61,640 nucleotides of DNA. Origin: Bacillota bacterium. Its GTDB lineage: Bacteria > Bacillota > Clostridia > Oscillospirales > SIG627. The stretch is from the NCBI GenBank assembly GCA_029006345.1, contig JAQXGK010000075.1:1-61640 (forward strand), written 5' to 3'. Below the pieces are notes generated by a model that saw only the letters and a program-made list of their open reading frames with translations, ran no database searches and was not told the DNA's origin. The translations under genes were made by a program, and so were the position numbers. Of the stretch, positions 24,559 through 34,573 are shown piece by piece (the first letter of the stretch is position 1; each line of letters begins with the position of its first letter).

Positions 24559-24630
24559 ATAGAAAATCCGATTTGCGGTATCACCGCTGCGGCAGGAAAT
24601 GAATATCAGCTTCTCTTCAGTATCTTCAAT

Positions 24631-24656
24631 CTTGTCGCCGACAAGGCTTTTTTTTT
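24631..24656 (+). promoter_or_regulatory. candidate leader attenuator: short hairpin plus a 9-T tract in the pyr 5' leader
   Basis: CTTGT-CGCCG-ACAAG followed by GCTTTTTTTTT, about 35 nt upstream of the pyrC start. The stem is weak. Confidence 0.35.
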
Positions 24657-24688
24657 GCCCAAACGACATAAGAAAGGAACGGTCAAAT

Positions 24689-25963
24689 ATGAACTACATT
24701 CTCAAAAACGGTTATGTATTTCGCAAAAACAGATTCGTTTCGGGTGATGTTTTCGTTTCCGACGGTATTATTGCCGATATCAGTCCCCGAGGCTTTTCCG
24801 GCGATACCGCCGTTATTCCGTTTGACGGTTGCTTTATTATTCCCGGTCTTGCAGATGTTCACGTTCATCTTCGAGAGCCGGGTTTTTTTTATAAGGAGAG
24901 TATAAAGACCGGCACGCTTGCGGCGGCGAGGGGCGGCTACACCGCCGTCTGCGCCATGCCCAATCTCAGTCCCGTTCCGGACTGCATGGAAAACCTGAAA
25001 GAGGAGCTTAGCATAATCGAGCGCGACGCGGCGGTTCGGGTGCTGCCGTACGGTGCGATAACCCGCGCCCAGGCAGGCGCAGAGCTGTCTGATATGGAGA
25101 AGATGGCGCCCTATGTCGCAGCCTTTTCGGACGACGGCAGGGGCGTGCAAAGCGACGACATTATGCTTGCCGCATTGAATAAAGCCAAAAGTCTCGGCAA
25201 AATAATTGCCGCTCACTGTGAGGACAATTCGCTTCTCAAGGGCGGATATATTCACGACGGAGAGTACGCAAGGAAAAACGGTCACCGCGGTATCTGTTCC
25301 GAAAGCGAATGGAAGCAGGTGGGGCGCGACATTGAGCTTGCACGGCAGACCGGCTGTCCCTACCATGTATGCCACGTTTCCGCCAAGGAAAGCGTAGAGC
25401 TGATCAGAAAAGCAAAAGCCGACGGTGTTGACATAACCTGTGAAACGGCGCCGCATTACCTTGTACTGACAGAAAACGACCTGAAAGACGACGGGCGCTT
25501 CAAAATGAATCCGCCGCTGAGAAGTGAAAGCGACCGCCACGCGCTTATCGAGGGCATTAAGGACGGTACAATCGATATGATTGCCACAGACCATGCGCCG
25601 CACTCCGCCGAGGAAAAATCCCGCGGGCTGAAGCTTAGCTCAATGGGCGTGGTCGGACTGGAGTGCGCGTTTCCGGTTCTGTATACCGAGCTTGTCAAAA
25701 ATAACATCATTACGCTTGAAAAGCTGATTGAACTCATGTCGCTGAGCCCCAAACGGCGCTTCAATATTCCGGGCGGACTGGAAATCGGAGACAGAGCCGA
25801 CCTTGCGGTTTTTGACCTGCGGCAGCAATATAAAATAAACCCGGACGAGTTTCTGTCAAAGGGCAGAAGCACGCCGTTTGAAGGAAAAGAAGTATTCGGC
25901 AAATGCATAATGACGATGGTAAACGGGAGGATAGTATGGCAAGAGAATTCGACAGAAAAATAG
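24689..25963 (+). CDS. pyrC: dihydroorotase
   Basis: 424 aa from the ATG at 24689, with SD AGAAAGGAA. Metal ligands DVHVHLREPG, and ATDHAPH. Confidence 0.9.
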   Translation: MNYILKNGYVFRKNRFVSGDVFVSDGIIADISPRGFSGDTAVIPFDGCFIIPGLADVHVHLREPGFFYKESIKTGTLAAARGGYTAVCAMPNLSPVPDCMENLKEELSIIERDAAVRVLPYGAITRAQAGAELSDMEKMAPYVAAFSDDGRGVQSDDIMLAALNKAKSLGKIIAAHCEDNSLLKGGYIHDGEYARKNGHRGICSESEWKQVGRDIELARQTGCPYHVCHVSAKESVELIRKAKADGVDITCETAPHYLVLTENDLKDDGRFKMNPPLRSESDRHALIEGIKDGTIDMIATDHAPHSAEEKSRGLKLSSMGVVGLECAFPVLYTELVKNNIITLEKLIELMSLSPKRRFNIPGGLEIGDRADLAVFDLRQQYKINPDEFLSKGRSTPFEGKEVFGKCIMTMVNGRIVWQENSTEK

Positions 25964-27042
25964 TACTTGAGGACGGCAGCGTCTACTTGGGATACGGCTT
26001 CGGCGACAGCTGCGACAGGGTGTGCGAAATAGTATTCAACACCTCCATGGTAGGATATCAGGAAATAGTATCCGACCCGTCCTACACATATCAGATGGTC
26101 GTAATGACCTATCCTATCATCGGCAACTACGGCATCGCCGACGACGACTTTGAATGTAAGACTCCTACAATCGGCGGCCTTATAGTACGCTCGTACAACG
26201 ACTTTCCCAGTAATTTCCGATACACAAAAACGCTGTCGGAAATTCTCGTCGAGAACCACATACCGGCTATCTCGGGCATTGACACGAGAAAGCTCACCAG
26301 AAGCATCCGCGACCTCGGAAGCCGCAAGGTGCTGATAACCGACATAGATACCCCCGCGGAGGACGCGCTGAAAATGCTCTCTGCAACCGAAATTCCGCAC
26401 GACGCCGTCTCAAAGGTCAGCTGTAAAAAGCGTTGGTACAGCCGCACCTCCAACCCGAAATACAATATCGTCGCCGTGGACTGCGGCATTAAGCTCAATA
26501 TAATCCGTTCACTGAATGCGCGCGGGTGCAACGTAACGGTAGTGCCGTGGAACACAACCGCCGCCGAAATCGAGAGCTTTCGCCCCGACGGAGTTTTTCT
26601 CTCAAACGGTCCCGGTGACCCAGAGGATGTCACTCCGGTAATAGAGCTTATCCGTAAAATCAGGGGCAAATATCCCATCTGCGGAATATGTCTCGGCCAC
26701 CAGATGATAAGCCTTGCCTACGGCGCCAAGACATACAAGCTGAAATTCGGCCACAGAGGCGGAAACCACCCGGTAAAAAATCTCAAAACGGGCAAAATAG
26801 AAATAACCAGCCAGAATCACAGCTATGCGGTCGACGCTTCCTCGGTGGAGGGGACGGGTCTTGAAATAACGCACATAAATCTGCTGGACAATACCGTCGA
26901 GGGCGTTGAGTGCGCTCAAGACCGTATATTCTCCGTACAGTACCATCCCGAGAGCGCGCCCGGCCCGCAGGACAGCGCGTATCTCTTTGATAAATTCATT
27001 TCAGCAGTAAAGGAGGCAAAGGACAGTGCCAAAAAGAACTGA
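25936..27042 (+). CDS. carA: carbamoyl-phosphate synthase small (glutaminase) subunit
   Basis: 368 aa from the ATG at 25936, with SD GGGAGG. GATase triad context CGICLGHQ, and YHPE. Confidence 0.9.
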
Positions 27043-30000
27043 TCTCAAAAAAATACTCGTTATCGGCTCCGGCCCCATCGTTATAGGACAGGCGGCGGAA
27101 TTCGACTACGCAGGCACTCAGGCATGCCTTTCCCTCAAGGAAGAAGGCTACGAGGTAATTCTGCTCAACTCCAACCCCGCAACCATAATGACAGATACCG
27201 CTATTGCCGACAAGGTATATATGGAGCCGCTCACCCTGGAATACGCGGCGAAAATTCTCCGTTATGAACGCCCCGATGCGATAGTGCCCGGAATAGGCGG
27301 TCAGACCGGACTGAATCTCGTAATGCAGCTCGAAAAGAAGGGCGTCCTGCGGGAATGTCAGGTCGAGGTTCTCGGTACTGACTGCGCGTCTATCGACCGC
27401 GCCGAAGACAGAGAGCTTTTCAAGGAGCTTTGCGAAGAGCTGGGAGAGCCGGTGCTGAAAAGCGAAATAACCCACTCGACCGAGGAGGCTATCGAGGCGG
27501 CAGAGCGCATAGGCTATCCCGTAGTTCTCAGACCCGCGTTCACGCTGGGCGGCACGGGCGGCGGCTTCGCCGACAACGAGGAGGAGCTGCGTGAAATCAT
27601 GAAAAACGCGCTCAAGCTGTCTCCTGTCAAGCAGGTGCTTGTTGAAAAGAGCATCAAGGGCTACAAAGAAATAGAATACGAGGTTATGCGCGACGCTAAC
27701 GATACCGCCATTACCATCTGCAACATGGAAAATATCGACCCGGTCGGCATACACACCGGAGACTCAATAGTCGTGGCTCCCAGTCAGACGCTGACCAATA
27801 AGGAATACCATCTTCTGCGCGACAGCGCGCTCAAAATAATCCGCGCTCTCAAGATAGAGGGCGGCTGCAACGTTCAGTTCGCGCTCGACCCGCAAAGCTT
27901 CAACTACTATGTCATAGAGGTCAACCCGCGAGTTTCCCGCTCCTCCGCTCTCGCAAGCAAGGCAAGCGGCTATCCGATAGCGCGCGTCTCGGCAAAAATC
28001 GCCGTCGGTCTCACGCTGGATGAAATAATGATAGCAAACACTCCGGCAAGCTTTGAGCCGACGCTCGACTATGTGGTAACAAAAATGCCGCGTTTCCCCT
28101 TCGACAAGTTTGCAACGGCTTCAAACAAGCTCAGCACTCAGATGAAGGCGACCGGCGAAGTAATGAGCATAGGACGCACCATGGAGGAAAGCCTGCTGAA
28201 ATCGGTCCGCTCGCTGGAAATCGGCGTCTGCCACCTCCACATGGAAAAGTTCGATTTCATGCAGCGCGACGAACTGCTCGAATATATCAAAATCGGCACT
28301 GACGACCGGATTTTCGCGATAGCACAGCTTATCCGTCTGGGCGTGGACATCGGCATTATCGCCGACGAAACGCGAATAGATATGCTGTTTATCGAAATGA
28401 TACGCAACATAATCGATTACGAAAAAGAGATAAAAGAGCATAAGGACGACACAAAAGTCCTTGCCTATGCCAAGAAAATGGGCTTTTCGGACGAATACAT
28501 AGCAAAGCTGTGGGGAGAGACCGACGACGAAGTATATGAGCTTCGCCGCAAAAATAAAATCTTCCCGGTATATAAGATGATAGACACCTGCGCGTCCGAA
28601 TTTGAAAGCTACATCCCGTATTTTTACTCGACCTATGAGCAGGAAAACGAGTCGATAGTCAGCGACAAAAAGAAAATCGTCGTACTGGGCAGCGGCCCGA
28701 TACGAATCGGACAGGGCGTGGAGTTCGACTACTCCACGGTTCACGCCGTCTGGACCATAAAAAACAACGGCTACGAAGCCATTATAATAAACAACAACCC
28801 CGAAACCGTCTCGACCGATTACACCACAAGTGACAAGCTCTACTTCGAACCGCTGACAAGCGAGGATGTAATGAACATCATCGAGCTTGAAAAGCCGATA
28901 GGAGTAATCGCCTCTCTCGGCGGTCAGACCGCAATAAACCTCGCCGATTCTCTGACGCGCCGCGGCGTAAAGATTATCGGCACTGATTGCGCGGCAATAG
29001 AGCGCGCCGAAAACAGGGATTCGTTCGAAAAGGTCATGGAGGATCTCGCCATTCCTCAGCCCAAGGGCAGAGCGGTAACCAGGATAGAGGACGGCGTAAC
29101 GGCCGCCGCCGAAATAGGCTACCCGGTGCTCGTCAGACCGAGCTATGTGCTGGGCGGAAGAGCGATGCAGATAGTATCAAACGAGCAGTCGCTCAGGCAG
29201 TATCTCAAGACGGCTGTTGCGATAAACACCGAGCAGCCGGTTCTTGTCGACAAGTATATTGTCGGCAAGGAGCTGGAGGTCGACGCCATCTGCGACGGCA
29301 CGGACGTGTTCGTGCCTGGAATAATGGAGCACGTTGAGCGCACGGGAATCCATTCCGGCGACTCTATAAGCGTTTATCCGACCTTCAGCATTTCGGAAAA
29401 AGCCAAGAAAACCATTCTCGACTATACCAAGGCGCTGGGCCTCGGAATAGGAATAGTCGGTCTTTTCAATATTCAGTTTATAGTTGACTGCGAGGAAAAC
29501 GTATATGTCATCGAGGTTAATCCGCGCTCTTCGAGAACGGTCCCCTTCCTGTCAAAGGCAACCGGCTACTCTCTCGCCGACATAGCAACGCTTGTCATTC
29601 TCGGCAAATCGCTCAGGGAGCAGGGACTTTCGAGCATATATCCGCCCGAGAAGAAGCGCTGGTATGTAAAGGCGCCGGCCTTCTCCTTCTCCAAGCTGCG
29701 CGGCCTGGACGCATATCTTTCACCGGAAATGAAGTCCACCGGCGAAGCAATAGGATACGACGACAAGCTCAACCGCGCACTATACAAGGCTCTGCAGTCC
29801 TCGGGAATGAACGTTATGAATTACGGCACCATTCTCGTCACTATCGCGGATAAGGACAAGGAGGAAGCACTGCCGCTCATACGGCGCTTCTACAACCTCG
29901 GCTTTAATATAGAAGCGACCCACGGCACGGCTATGTTCCTGAAGAAACACGGAATACGCACCCGTGTAAAGCAAAAAATCAGCGAAGGCAGCGAGGAGAT

Positions 30001-30205
30001 ACTCGACTCTATCCGTCAGGGATATGTCAATTACGTCATCAATACCCGCGATATGAGCTCGATACATCAGGAATCCGACGGCTATGCAATACGCCGCTGC
30101 GCAGTTGAAAACAACGTCACCATGTTTACCGCACTGGACACCGTGCGAGTGCTTCTTGACGTACTTGAGGAAATAACGCTCAGCATTTCCACGATAGATT
30201 CATGA
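27026..30205 (+). CDS. carB: carbamoyl-phosphate synthase large subunit
   Basis: 1059 aa. The ATP-grasp halves are duplicated ([20 protein letters not shown] and [20 protein letters not shown]). GTG start. Confidence 0.95.
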
Positions 30206-30220
30206 TATAAGGAGCAAAAT

Positions 30221-30967
30221 GTGAAACAGACCATTCTGACAGTTACAAATCAGACCCGTATCGCCGACGGCGTATATAAAATGACTCTCTCGGGCGACTG
30301 CACCGAGATAAAGCGGCCCGGACAGTTTGTCAACTTTGCGCTTGACGGCCTGTTTCTGCGCCGCCCGATATCCGTCTGCGACTCTTCCGGCGACTCGGTC
30401 ACTGTAATATATAAGACGGTGGGCGCCGGAACAGAAAAAATGGCGCAAATGACCGCCGGCGACCGTCTTGACACGCTTGTCGGACTGGGAAACGGCTTTG
30501 ACACGTCCAAAAGCGGCGACCGTCCGCTGCTTGTCGGCGGAGGCTGCGGACTGCCCCCGCTCTACAAGCTCTGCAAGGACTTGCTGCGAGAGGGCAAGCG
30601 GCCTGTAGTTATCGGCGGCTTCAACTCAAAAAAGGACGCATTCCTTGAGGACGAATTCAACTCGCTTGGCGTGGAATACCGCATTTCCACGGTTGACGGC
30701 AGTCTCGGCAAGCGCGGCTTTGTCACCGACGTTTTGCCGGAAACGGGCAGCTACACCTTCTTTTACTCCTGCGGACCCATAGTTATGATGAAAAATTTAA
30801 GCGCCCTCTGCCCTACCTCAGGAGAGGTCAGTCTCGAGGCGCGCATGGGCTGCGGCTTCGGAGCCTGCATGGGCTGTACCTGTGAAACCGTCTCGGGCGG
30901 CAAGCGCATATGCAAGGACGGTCCGGTCTTTCAAAAGGAGGAGGTATTATGGCAGAACTTTCAGTAA
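30221..30967 (+). CDS. pyrK: dihydroorotate dehydrogenase electron-transfer subunit
   Basis: 248 aa. FAD/NAD-binding fold and the C-terminal 2Fe-2S Cys cluster CGFGACMGCTC...C. Confidence 0.85.
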   Translation: MKQTILTVTNQTRIADGVYKMTLSGDCTEIKRPGQFVNFALDGLFLRRPISVCDSSGDSVTVIYKTVGAGTEKMAQMTAGDRLDTLVGLGNGFDTSKSGDRPLLVGGGCGLPPLYKLCKDLLREGKRPVVIGGFNSKKDAFLEDEFNSLGVEYRISTVDGSLGKRGFVTDVLPETGSYTFFYSCGPIVMMKNLSALCPTSGEVSLEARMGCGFGACMGCTCETVSGGKRICKDGPVFQKEEVLWQNFQ

Positions 30968-31860
30968 AGCTCGCTAATCTTACGCTTGACAATCCTATAA
31001 TACCGGCAAGCGGCACCTTCGGCTTCGGCTATGAATTTGCCGAACTGTACGACATAAATATTCTCGGCTCGATTTCCGTAAAGGGCACTACCAAGGAGCC
31101 GCGTCTCGGGAATCCCCTTCCGCGAATAGCCGAGTGCACCGACGGACTGATAAATTCCGTCGGGCTTCAGAATCCCGGCGTGGATAAGGTTCTGTCCGAA
31201 GAGCTGCCAAAGCTCAGACAGGTGTATTCCAAGCCGATTATTGCAAACGTCAGCGGCTTTTCGCCCGAGGAATACGCCTACACCGCAGAGCGGCTGGATT
31301 CCGACAGCTCGGTGGGAATAATCGAGGTGAATATAAGCTGTCCGAATGTTCGCTGCGGCGGAATAGCCTTCGGCACCGATAAACAAAACGCCGCACTTGT
31401 CACCAAGGCGGTAAAAGCGGCCACAAAAAAGCCGGTTTTCATCAAGCTGACTCCGAATGTCACCGATATAACCGAAATAGCGCGCGCCTGCGAAGCGGAG
31501 GGGGCGGACGGACTTTCGCTGATAAATACTCTGCTCGGCATGCGCATCGACCTTAAAACAAAAAAGCCGGTAATCGCCAATAAAATGGGCGGCTTTTCCG
31601 GCAGGGCGATACTTCCCGTGGCGCTCAGATGCGTCTGGCAGGTCTACGAGGCAGTCAATATACCGATAATCGGTATGGGCGGTATTTCTACTCCCGAAAA
31701 TGTTATCGAAATGATGCTCGCCGGTGCGACGGCGGTTCAGATAGGTGCGGAAAACCTGATAAATCCCACCGTTTGCCGCGACATAATCCAGGCACTGCCG
31801 GCGACAATGGAAAAGTACGGCATAACCGATCTTAGCAGTATAATAGGAGGAGCACACTGA
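30949..31860 (+). CDS. pyrD: dihydroorotate dehydrogenase (class 1B) catalytic subunit
   Basis: 303 aa from the ATG at 30949, with SD AAAGGAGGAGG. Motifs NPIIPASGTFGFG, NISCPN and GGIS. Confidence 0.9.
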   Translation: MAELSVKLANLTLDNPIIPASGTFGFGYEFAELYDINILGSISVKGTTKEPRLGNPLPRIAECTDGLINSVGLQNPGVDKVLSEELPKLRQVYSKPIIANVSGFSPEEYAYTAERLDSDSSVGIIEVNISCPNVRCGGIAFGTDKQNAALVTKAVKAATKKPVFIKLTPNVTDITEIARACEAEGADGLSLINTLLGMRIDLKTKKPVIANKMGGFSGRAILPVALRCVWQVYEAVNIPIIGMGGISTPENVIEMMLAGATAVQIGAENLINPTVCRDIIQALPATMEKYGITDLSSIIGGAH

Positions 31861-32558
31861 TGGGTAAGGATGTTATTATCGCCTGCGATTTTGCCGGCAA
31901 AGCTCAGGCGCTGGATTTTCTTTCGCGCTTTACGGATACCAAACCGTATGTTAAAATAGGAATGGAATTATTCTATGCCGAAGGGCCCGAAATCGTCCGT
32001 GAAATAAAAAAACGCGGCCACAAGGTGTTTCTCGACCTCAAGCTTCACGACATTCCCAACACCGTAAAGAAGTCGATGTCGGTGCTTTCCGCCCTTGATG
32101 TCGATATGGTCAACCTCCACGCAAGCGGCACGGTCGCCATGATGCAGGCCGCGCTCGAGGGTCTGACAAGAGCCGACGGCACCAGACCGCTTCTTATTGC
32201 CGTCACACAGCTCACCTCCACCTCGGAGGAGCGCATGAAATCCGACCTGCTTATTAACCAGCCGCTCGAAAAGGTGGTTTCGCACTACGCGCTGTGCGCC
32301 AAGAGCGCAGGTCTCGACGGCGTTGTATGCTCTCCCCTCGAATCCGAAGGAGTCCATTCGGTCTGCGGCAAGAGCTTTCTTACCGTAACTCCCGGAGTCC
32401 GCTTTGCCGACGGAAATATAGGCGACCAGGTCAGAGTAACCACCCCGCAAAAGGCAAAAGAACTGGGCAGTGATTATATAGTCGTAGGCAGACCGATAAC
32501 AGCGGCCGACGATCCCGTGGCGGCATATCTCCGCTGCGTAAGCGAATTTACAGACTGA
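31860..32558 (+). CDS. pyrF: orotidine-5'-phosphate decarboxylase
   Basis: 232 aa with the FLDLKLHDIPNTV motif and IVVGRPI. Confidence 0.9.
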   Translation: MGKDVIIACDFAGKAQALDFLSRFTDTKPYVKIGMELFYAEGPEIVREIKKRGHKVFLDLKLHDIPNTVKKSMSVLSALDVDMVNLHASGTVAMMQAALEGLTRADGTRPLLIAVTQLTSTSEERMKSDLLINQPLEKVVSHYALCAKSAGLDGVVCSPLESEGVHSVCGKSFLTVTPGVRFADGNIGDQVRVTTPQKAKELGSDYIVVGRPITAADDPVAAYLRCVSEFTD

Positions 32559-32589
32559 ACTGTCAAACAGAGAAAAGGAAGTACTGAAC

Positions 32590-33228
32590 ATGAAAGAACT
32601 TATAGCCAGAGATTTACTGTCGATAAAGGCGGTTTTCTTCAGACCCGACGAGCCGTTTACATGGGCGAGCGGCATAAAGAGCCCGGTATATTGCGATAAC
32701 AGACTTACCCTCACCGCTCCCAAGGTCAGAAATGATGTGGAAAACGCGCTTGCCGCCGTTATACGCGAAAAATTCCCCGAAGTTCAGGTGCTTATGGGAA
32801 CCTCTACAGCCGGTATAGCGCACGCCGCCATAACCGCGCATATCTTAGGGCTGCCGATGGGTTATGTCCGCTCGGGCTCCAAGGATCACGGCAGACAGAA
32901 TCAGATAGAGGGCAAGCTGGAAAAAGGCGAAAAGGTTGTCGTTGTAGAAGATCTCATCTCGACCGGCGGCAGCGTCATAGAAGTGGTAAACGTACTGCGC
33001 GAAGCCGGCGCGGAGGTGCTCGGCATTGTCAGCATTTTCACCTACGGCATGAAAAAAGGACTCGAGCGTCTCGCCCAAGCTGATGTAGTCAACTACTCGC
33101 TCACTGATTTTGACACTATCGCACGCGTCGCCGCAAGCGAGGGATATATACCCGAACGCGACATAGAAAGACTCATTAAATTCCGCAACAATCCGTCCGA
33201 CGAAAGCTGGATAGGCTCAAACAACTGA
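32590..33228 (+). CDS. pyrE: orotate phosphoribosyltransferase
   Basis: 212 aa with the PRPP-binding loop [13 protein letters not shown]. Confidence 0.9.
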
Positions 33229-33244: not shown

Positions 33245-34336
33245 ATGAGAAACCTTATAGATATTTTTGACCTGTCGGTAGATGAAATAGACGCGCTTAT
33301 GGCGCTCGCCGACGATATAATTAAAAATCCGCGGGACTACTGTGACCGTCTGCGCGGAAAAAAGCTCGCCACACTGTTTTTCGAGCCTTCGACACGCACA
33401 AGGCTCAGCTTTGAAGCGGCTATGTACGAGCTCGGCGGGAATGTTCTCGGCTTCTCGGAGGCGGGAAATTCAAGCTCGGCGGTAAAGGGAGAAAGCATCT
33501 CCGACACCGTCAAGGTTATAAGCGCCTATGCCGATATTATTGCAATGCGCCATCCCCGTGAAGGCGCGCCGCTTGTAGCCGCCATGAAATCCGATGTGCC
33601 GATAATCAACGCCGGCGACGGCGGCCACCACCATCCGACGCAGACTCTGACCGACCTCTTTACCATCAAGCGAAAGAAGGGGCGCCTGGACAGTCTGACC
33701 ATAGGGCTGTGCGGAGACCTTAAATTCGGCAGAACGGTTCATTCTCTCATTTCCGCCCTTTCGAGATACAGAAATATCACACTTATTCTCATTTCGCCCG
33801 ACGAGCTCAGACTGCCGGGTTATATCAAAAAAGGCGTCATAGTGGAAAACGCCATGAAATACTCCGAGACTACCGACTTGGACCTTGTAATGCCGGTGCT
33901 CGACATACTCTATATGACCCGTATTCAGCAGGAGCGCTTCGCCAACCGCAGCGACTATGTGCGCCTGAAGGACAGCTATATTCTTACCGAAGAGCGGTTG
34001 AAATCCGCCAAGCCCGACCTTACCGTCATGCATCCTCTGCCGAGAGTAAACGAAATCTCCGTCGCGGTAGACCGGGATCCGAGAGCCTGCTATTTCGAGC
34101 AGGCGCGAAACGGCAAATACATCCGCATGGCTCTGATACTTTCACTGTTGAGCGAACAGTGGCTGAGCTGCCCCGATAAAAAGCAACCTTTCATTTCGCC
34201 GGTCGGAATGAAATGCGAAAACCCCTCCTGCATATCCCAGACCGAACAGGAACTGCCGCAGGAATTCCGCCTTGTGGACCGTGAAAAAGGAATATATCGC
34301 TGCCGGTACTGCGATACTGACATATTGGACAAATAA
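33245..34336 (+). CDS. pyrB: aspartate carbamoyltransferase catalytic chain fused to a PyrI-type zinc domain
   Basis: 363 aa with [13 protein letters not shown] and HPLPR. An extra C-terminal stretch of about 55 aa has CENPSC-x23-CRYC, which reproduces the PyrI C-x4-C...C-x2-C spacing. Confidence 0.9.
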
Positions 34337-34394: not shown

Positions 34395-34423
34395 TTGACT
34401 ATTTGGCCGAAGTAGTATATAAT
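34395..34423 (+). promoter_or_regulatory. sigma-A promoter of the pur operon (TTGACT-17-TATAAT)
   Basis: -35 at 34395-34400 and -10 at 34418-34423 with a 17-nt spacer. Confidence 0.6.
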
Positions 34424-34469: not shown

Positions 34470-34573
34470 TTTGCTACTGACGGAAGTGGGTTACCACAAG
34501 GGAGCTTAAAGCTAATAACAATGCCGACCGTCTGGGCAGTCCTATTACCGCATAGGACTGCCTTACTTATTTT
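34470..34573 (+). promoter_or_regulatory. ZTP (pfl-motif) riboswitch with terminator expression platform
   Basis: 5' subdomain is CUACUGACGGAAGUGGGUUACCACAAGGGAGC (consensus ..ACUGGCG..GUGGG..CCAC..GGGGAGC). 3' element is CCGUCUGGGCA (consensus CCGCCUGGGCA). The pseudoknot pair covaries: GACGG at 34479-83 with CCGUC at 34528-32. The 3' element overlaps an 11-bp terminator stem (GGCAGTCCTAT / ATAGGACTGCC) followed by TTACTTATTTT. Confidence 0.7.

Follow-up and report, generated by a model that had tools for sequence, protein, structure and literature searches.

The window that we analysed is the whole stretch of 61,640 nucleotides from a Bacillota bacterium (Clostridia; Oscillospirales; SIG627), and the source genome comprises 1.66 Mb in 118 contigs and is 94.4% complete. 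On the forward strand of the window lies a pyr operon in the order pyrC-carA-carB-pyrK-pyrD-pyrF-pyrE-pyrB. The part upstream of pyrB occupies 24599..33228 as a whole and consists of pyrC (24599-25963), carA (25903-27042), carB (27026-30205), pyrK (30221-30967), pyrD (30910-31860), pyrF (31860-32558) and pyrE (32590-33228). The terminal gene is pyrB, which spans 33245..34336 and encodes 363 amino acids followed by a stop codon. Just 3' of pyrB there are a promoter-like site (TTGACT-17-TATAAT, 34395-34423) and a terminator-like 12-bp hairpin (34534-34563), both of which are part of the downstream ZTP-riboswitch/purE unit.

The body of PyrB is formed by both carbamoyltransferase domains, the carbamoyl-phosphate-binding domain OTCace_N (PF02729, residues 2-142, 33248..33670, Pfam E 2.6e-47) and the aspartate-binding domain OTCace (PF00185, residues 151-300, 33695..34144, Pfam E 6.6e-26), and it scores 337.5 bits with the NCBIfam model TIGR00670, over the curated equivalog cut-off of 236.95. 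The active-site motifs S-T-R-T-R (S49-R53), H-P-T-Q (H130-Q133) and H-P-L-P-R (H263-R267) are present and invariant across 66 homologues. The body is followed by a variable, poorly conserved linker (residues 304-321, 34154..34207) and by the zinc domain PyrI_C of the regulatory chain (PF02748, residues 322-360, 34208..34324). The PyrI_C match has an E-value of 2e-12 and 47.2 bits against the gathering threshold of 23.4, and the 64-residue tail searched alone gave E 1e-13 (Pfam); the tail also matches the regulatory-subunit models NF002063 and TIGR00240 (NCBIfam). The predicted Cys ligands C324, C329, C353 and C356, read from the DNA at codons 34214-34216, 34229-34231, 34301-34303 and 34310-34312, show the family spacing C-x4-C-x23-C-x2-C. 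The original prediction had described a 363-aa PyrB with a C-terminal extension and this very arrangement of Cys residues, and the reading frame and its codons agree with it in both respects. Only 7 residues, with no extra module, lie between the last Cys and the C-terminus. A fifth Cys, C308 (34166-34168), is located in the linker and is unconserved among homologues.

The full-length protein was modelled as a monomer by AlphaFold2 with 66 fused homologues, and the model showed a mean pLDDT of 89.4 and a pTM of 0.90. The zinc domain reached a pLDDT of 86-89 and the linker (301-320) one of 67-70, values that in a monomer model speak for the fold of the tail and not for where it packs. When we compared the full-length model with solved structures using Foldseek, only catalytic chains were matched, over about 300 columns with a TMt of about 0.9 and a TMq of about 0.77. 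Since no solved chain in this search covered the tail, the tail was modelled alone from 76 fused tails and stand-alone zinc domains (pLDDT 84.6). The top 19 PDB matches of this model were all ATCase regulatory chains, from Sulfolobus, M. jannaschii and E. coli, with rmsd values of 0.9-2.0 Å over 38-40 columns, TMq values of 0.56-0.67 and probabilities of 0.9-1.0. The likeness to the zinc domain of E. coli PyrI, which the original prediction had proposed from sequence alone, reappeared as a structural match with 28% identity over 39-40 columns. Foldseek E-values of the 54-residue tail were weak (0.07-0.5) because the domain is tiny, but the ranking was unambiguous. In the sequence alignment to solved PyrI chains, the tail corresponds to residues 114-153 of Sulfolobus 1pg5_B and residues 105-141 of M. 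jannaschii 2yww. The modelling confirmed PyrI_C as the predicted fold of the window tail.

No separate pyrI is found within the window. The nucleotide-binding domain of PyrI (PF01948) gave no match at E<=1 in the 94.4%-complete source genome, while control genomes were matched, and PF02748 exceeded its cut-off in the source genome only in the tail of the window PyrB. No regulatory chain with PF01948, as belongs to a class B holoenzyme, was thus found in the source genome. PF01948 was also absent from 26 related genomes that bear PyrI_C without a standard pyrI and from the 5 named-record carrier genomes that we checked. The original prediction of a minimal fusion, in which PyrB carries the zinc domain alone and the window has neither a separate pyrI nor an allosteric domain, is upheld by these searches. 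The end of PyrB and the zinc domain lie only about 20 codons apart, and the stop codon is followed by a promoter and a ZTP riboswitch, so that a frameshift cannot be hiding an allosteric domain of about 90 residues. A frameshift or an assembly artefact concealing a full-length pyrI was ruled out by the genome search, by the short linker, by the downstream promoter and by a 99%-identical protein known from 4 other contigs (P0001).

A database search with residues 290-363 retrieved 69 proteins of 355-381 aa with an identical three-domain layout, all annotated merely as 'aspartate carbamoyltransferase'. The fused form is present in named records of Faecousia, Oscillospiraceae, Christensenellaceae, Eubacterium and Bulleidia, in Bacteroidota records of Alistipes, Paludibacteraceae and Porphyromonadaceae, and in the cultured carriers [Clostridium] cellulosi (closed genome) and Zongyangia hominis. 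Among 61 genomes of the family and order of the window, PyrI_C was detected in 43 and the allosteric domain in 17. Both PyrI domains lie in one frame of about 140-180 aa, that is, a normal pyrI, in all 17 genomes with the allosteric domain, and in the remaining 26 genomes PyrI_C is part of a frame as long as PyrB or lies at the end of a contig. When the PyrB frames, chosen by BLAST and alignment columns, were read out in 50 related genomes with the PyrB lineage of the window, 33 were fused and 17 were split (pyrB and full pyrI), showing that the zinc-domain-only fusion is common and is the majority state in the order of the window. The fused set includes seven divergent tails that were missed by Pfam yet keep the pattern C-x-N-x-x-C...C-x-Y-C. 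No zinc-domain-less member of this PyrB lineage was found among the 50 genomes, and the zinc domain is present in every one of 80 named loci where the contig permits a view. The statement that the zinc domain is never lost covers the class-B PyrB lineage only.

The only PyrI-less ATCase that we found in the order occurs in genus g8 of the family of the window and comes from a different PyrB lineage (G007:C14:40381-41238 and G014:C8:43843-44700; TIGR00670 290-300 bits, without PyrI_C). No close relative of the window PyrB was found in these two genomes, and it seems that the class-B enzyme was displaced there by the different, PyrI-less lineage. Three genomes of the order that are 98-100% complete (G039, G040 and G056) have no ATCase over the TIGR00670 cut-off and may be pyrimidine auxotrophs. 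In L046 (G050:C10:26500-30400), a fused PyrB of about 351 aa lies inside a 606-aa stop-to-stop frame, which may be a further upstream fusion or a mere open leader. Across 301 genomes of the class Clostridia, PyrI_C exceeded the cut-off in 143 and was located in a PyrB-length frame in about a dozen. Five genomes of this class survey (G297, G405, G437, G463 and G367) contain PyrI_C in frames of 398-427 aa, compared with 355-370 aa for the fused form, and these frames may represent other architectures or full PyrB-PyrI fusions. Stand-alone pyrI is carried by 113 of 121 Bacteroidales genomes sampled, and the fused form by 2.

In the split relatives, whose synteny matches that of the window, pyrE, a pyrB of 304 aa and a pyrI of 138 aa follow one another with a 0-nt gap, and the zinc domains of these PyrIs are closely similar to the fused tails. 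Based on these observations, we conclude that the fusion arose by in-frame deletion of the pyrB stop codon together with the allosteric domain. In a maximum-likelihood tree of 130 rows, built from catalytic parts only and rooted on canonical Bacteroidales PyrBs, the window PyrB nests among PyrBs with adjacent pyrI. It forms a lineage of its own with weak placement, and its tail is up to 50% identical to stand-alone zinc domains compared with at most 45% to other fused tails. The fused state requires 7 changes on this tree (bootstrap 5-95% range 6-7), and the supported branches by themselves force at least 5. A single origin was recovered in 0 of 200 bootstrap trees, and the AU test for a single fused clade gave p 0.034; a smaller tree of 46 proteins left the number of origins unsettled (AU p 0.41 and 0.28). 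Since regain of a deleted domain is implausible, we read the changes as independent losses. Repeated origin is supported independently by the rare C-I-C-N-N-E signature, which the fused tail of L119 shares with the stand-alone PyrI of its sister L123. Taken from the tree, these results indicate that the allosteric domain has been lost independently at least five times and that the zinc domain was retained each time. Seven fused Bacteroidota PyrBs (L109, L115, L117, L095, L124, L138 and L142) form one clade (100/99) inside the Clostridia radiation, and they are 57-62% identical to the window PyrB compared with 47-49% for canonical Bacteroidales PyrBs. Both their placement and their identities point to horizontal transfer, and the fused gene has probably moved between gut phyla.

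The conservation of the tail is uneven. Across 66 fused proteins, C324, C329, C353, C356, N326 and E334 never vary, and I330, R352 and Y355 are conserved in at least 90%. For pairs with unsaturated dS, the tail gave dN/dS values of 0.04-0.34, compared with 0.05-0.19 in the catalytic part and 0.14-0.83 in the linker; it should be considered that dS is saturated in many pairs and that the tail offers only 35-39 codons. These values indicate that the tail is maintained by purifying selection. On the contrary, constraint is relaxed in fused tails at the L-P hinge, R328, L343 and Y351, positions with 100% conservation in stand-alone PyrI. In E. coli PyrI, the linker prolines pack around helix H2 of the nucleotide-binding domain (PMC11601545), which fits relaxation of the tail face that formerly met the lost domain.

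Detailed comparison of 78 Clostridia PyrBs with full PyrI and 48 fused PyrBs revealed that the biggest differences all sit in one loop of the catalytic chain. The split enzymes show the motif E-R-F-F-N-E-x-x-Y in this loop, in which F233 is present in 78 of 78 split but 0 of 48 fused proteins, N234 in 75 of 78 but 1 of 48, and E235 in 78 of 78 but 11 of 48. The window PyrB has A-N-R at positions 233-235 (33941..33949). The substitutes for F233 vary by fused lineage, being P, A, D/A, L/A, N/A/D/G, D or S; fused L119, for example, has E-R-F-P-S-E-E-E-Y in place of the E-R-F-F-S-E-(E/D)-E-Y of its split sisters. Four independent pairs on supported branches all changed in the same direction (4/4, sign test p 0.125, the strongest value possible with four), and the best tree provides seven independent pairs. 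In the alignment to the E. coli-type sequence, F232 of the window corresponds to L235, A233 to an insertion, N234 to D236 and Y238 to Y240, which places the F-N-E motif at the tip of the 240s loop. Newton and Kantrowitz reportedly found in 1990 that the 240s loop in the T state contacts the regulatory chain of the opposite half through D236. Bacteroidales PyrBs with stand-alone PyrI show T/S-D at the motif position, indicating that F-N-E is specific to the Clostridia class-B clade, and its role in PyrI contact is suggested by its position. We suggest that the convergent loss of F-N-E would point to the residues through which the catalytic loop communicates with the regulatory chain in Clostridia class-B enzymes. 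Residue 161 (33725-33727) is a second, weaker candidate for a state-linked position; it is Phe in 77 of 78 split Clostridia PyrBs and also in the window, most fused PyrBs have Tyr or Asn there, and by offset it presumably aligns with E. coli Y165.

We compared the window protein with known ATCases. The class B holoenzyme PyrB6-PyrI6 (E. coli; P. abyssi, M. jannaschii and S. acidocaldarius; PDB 1d09, 1ml4 and 1pg5) has a catalytic chain of the same lineage, and the best PDB sequence matches of the window PyrB are 1ml4 (E 9e-92) and E. coli (about 1e-84) with a TM of 0.9. Its zinc domain is homologous to the window tail and shares with it the Cys4 pattern and the fold. However, the window protein is without the nucleotide-binding/dimerisation domain and would thus form no r2 dimers and have no classical CTP/UTP/ATP sites, its zinc domain is covalently joined, and the 240s-loop motif of Clostridia with full PyrI is missing. 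The nearest described relative, going by its citation in PMC4581275, is the full-length PyrB-PyrI fusion of Thermotoga maritima (Chen et al. 1998, J Bacteriol 180:6389). In both proteins regulatory sequence continues the catalytic chain at its C-terminus; that of Thermotoga comprises PyrI in full, and the enzyme is allosteric, whereas the window protein has no allosteric domain. With the model NF009916 for the Thermotoga-type bifunctional PyrB-PyrI, the window protein scored 128.6 bits against a cut-off of 800, and the match covers just the catalytic part plus the final ~37 residues.

The closest functional analogue was made in vitro from the catalytic trimer of E. coli and the isolated zinc domain of its PyrI. 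Markby, Zhou and Schachman in 1991 (PNAS 88:10568) and Peterson et al. in 1994 (Protein Sci 3:960) reportedly observed that this domain of 70 residues attaches to the trimer, changes its kinetics and makes it more stable to heat. The composition is that of the window protein, catalytic chains and zinc domain only, but the E. coli complex is a laboratory construct of two polypeptides, whereas the window protein is a natural single chain with a linker of its own, and this layout has evolved repeatedly. The class C ATCase (bare trimer of B. subtilis, PDB 2at2/3r7d) is a trimer unregulated by nucleotides, a behaviour that the window protein probably shares. However, class C enzymes belong to another PyrB lineage (E 1e-38 compared with 1e-84 or better for class B chains) without PyrI-derived sequence, whereas the window protein carries PyrI_C and nests among PyrBs with adjacent pyrI. 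Reviews divide bacterial ATCases into class A (with dihydroorotase), class B (with PyrI, split or fully fused) and class C (bare trimer) (PMC4581275, PMC6022934). The zinc-domain-only fusion fits none of the classes A, B and C, and it is a variant of the class-B ATCase. A full-text literature search found no paper on such a fusion, and the number of origins, the transfer to Bacteroidota, the differential conservation of the tail, the coupled loss in the 240s loop and the cultured carriers are new here.

The protein is a class-B-lineage PyrB with a linker of ~20 residues and a Cys4 zinc domain of ~40 residues, which was born of an in-frame deletion within a pyrB-pyrI pair, and based on these observations we consider it fairly probable that it acts as a trimer with docked zinc clamps that is not regulated by nucleotides. 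The original prediction had further proposed that the zinc domain is kept for structural reasons and that quaternary structure or regulatory logic would differ; indirect backing for this comes from the invariant Cys4/N/E/R/Y of the tail, its dN/dS of 0.04-0.34, the origins numbering at least 5, the absence of zinc-domain-less members in this PyrB lineage and the convergent loss in the 240s loop. First, in an adjacent pyrB-pyrI pair, the pyrB stop codon and the nucleotide-binding domain of ~90 residues were deleted in frame. Second, the catalytic chains would form a trimer, and three putative zinc-binding domains would dock on it at the canonical c-r interface, each on its own or on the neighbouring chain. 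Third, the docked domains would serve as a structural clamp on which class-B catalytic chains came to depend. Finally, nucleotide feedback would have been given up, and control of the pathway would be left to transcription of the pyr operon and to carbamoyl-phosphate synthetase. The CTP/UTP/ATP sites of ATCase lie in the nucleotide-binding domain of PyrI. It is also through these domains that regulatory chains dimerise, while their zinc domains each attach to one catalytic subunit (PMC11601545). Since both the dimerisation and the nucleotide sites belong to the missing domain, neither a dodecamer of 2 c3 : 3 r2 nor classical nucleotide sensing would be expected.

The fused zinc domains might instead bridge two trimers through contacts like c1-r1/c4-r1, giving a c6 hexamer with T-like cooperativity and no nucleotide control. 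In the T state of the E. coli enzyme each zinc domain touches both trimers, contacting also a chain of the opposite one, and the strong conservation of the tail would suit such a bridge. The description of the zinc domains as 'brake pads' that set the separation of the trimers (PMC11601545) is in line with it as well. However, the F-N-E motif, invariant with full PyrI and sitting at the position of E. coli D236, is gone from every fused lineage, and this convergent decay of the 240s loop argues that the cross-trimer c-r contact was lost too, which weighs against a zinc-bridged hexamer. In addition, the isolated E. coli zinc domain reportedly formed c3-type complexes and not hexamers. We therefore regard the hexamer as unlikely. 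Re-use of the zinc domain for docking another partner, such as another regulator, dihydroorotase or carbamoyl-phosphate synthetase, for channelling or new control, seems less likely again; pyrC and carAB do share the operon with pyrB, but the window tail ends 7 residues beyond its last Cys without any further module, no candidate partner was found, and a search of the catalytic part for positions that became conserved just in fused proteins, which could mark new contacts in cis, found none. It is hardly credible that a recent deletion left the tail behind without a function, or that an artefact masks a normal pyrI, since, although the linker is poorly conserved and the residues facing the lost domain are relaxed, the Cys4 and four or five more tail residues are (nearly) invariant across lineages whose catalytic parts are only ~50% identical to the window, the dN/dS of the tail is well under 1, the old cluster B retains the tail, hundreds of independent assemblies including one closed genome carry it, and the space between PyrB and the tail is too small for a domain of 90 residues.

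Returning to the trimer with docked zinc clamps, we tentatively propose that PyrB with a zinc clamp in cis might constitute a fourth natural class of ATCase, a proposal that in our judgement falls a little short of an even chance. In such a class the catalytic chains would depend structurally on the docking domain, the allosteric domain would have been deleted repeatedly where feedback was dispensable, as in gut anaerobes with small genomes, the docking domain would never have been lost, and the 240s loop would have relaxed after each loss. If this is true, these enzymes would be a replicated natural experiment in subunit-interface entrenchment in a textbook allosteric enzyme.

ATCase is a textbook model of allostery, and in a large order of gut Clostridia the predominant form of the enzyme has kept nothing of the regulatory chain but its docking half. 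Because of the generic annotation 'aspartate carbamoyltransferase', these proteins would be entered in metabolic models, wrongly, either as enzymes with class-B feedback or as plain class-C enzymes. The losses with the zinc domain kept, at least five in number, provide a replicated natural test of why a docking module is retained, by structural dependence or by kinetic tuning, and the loss of the F-N-E motif makes the coupling between the catalytic loop and the regulatory chain open to mutagenesis.
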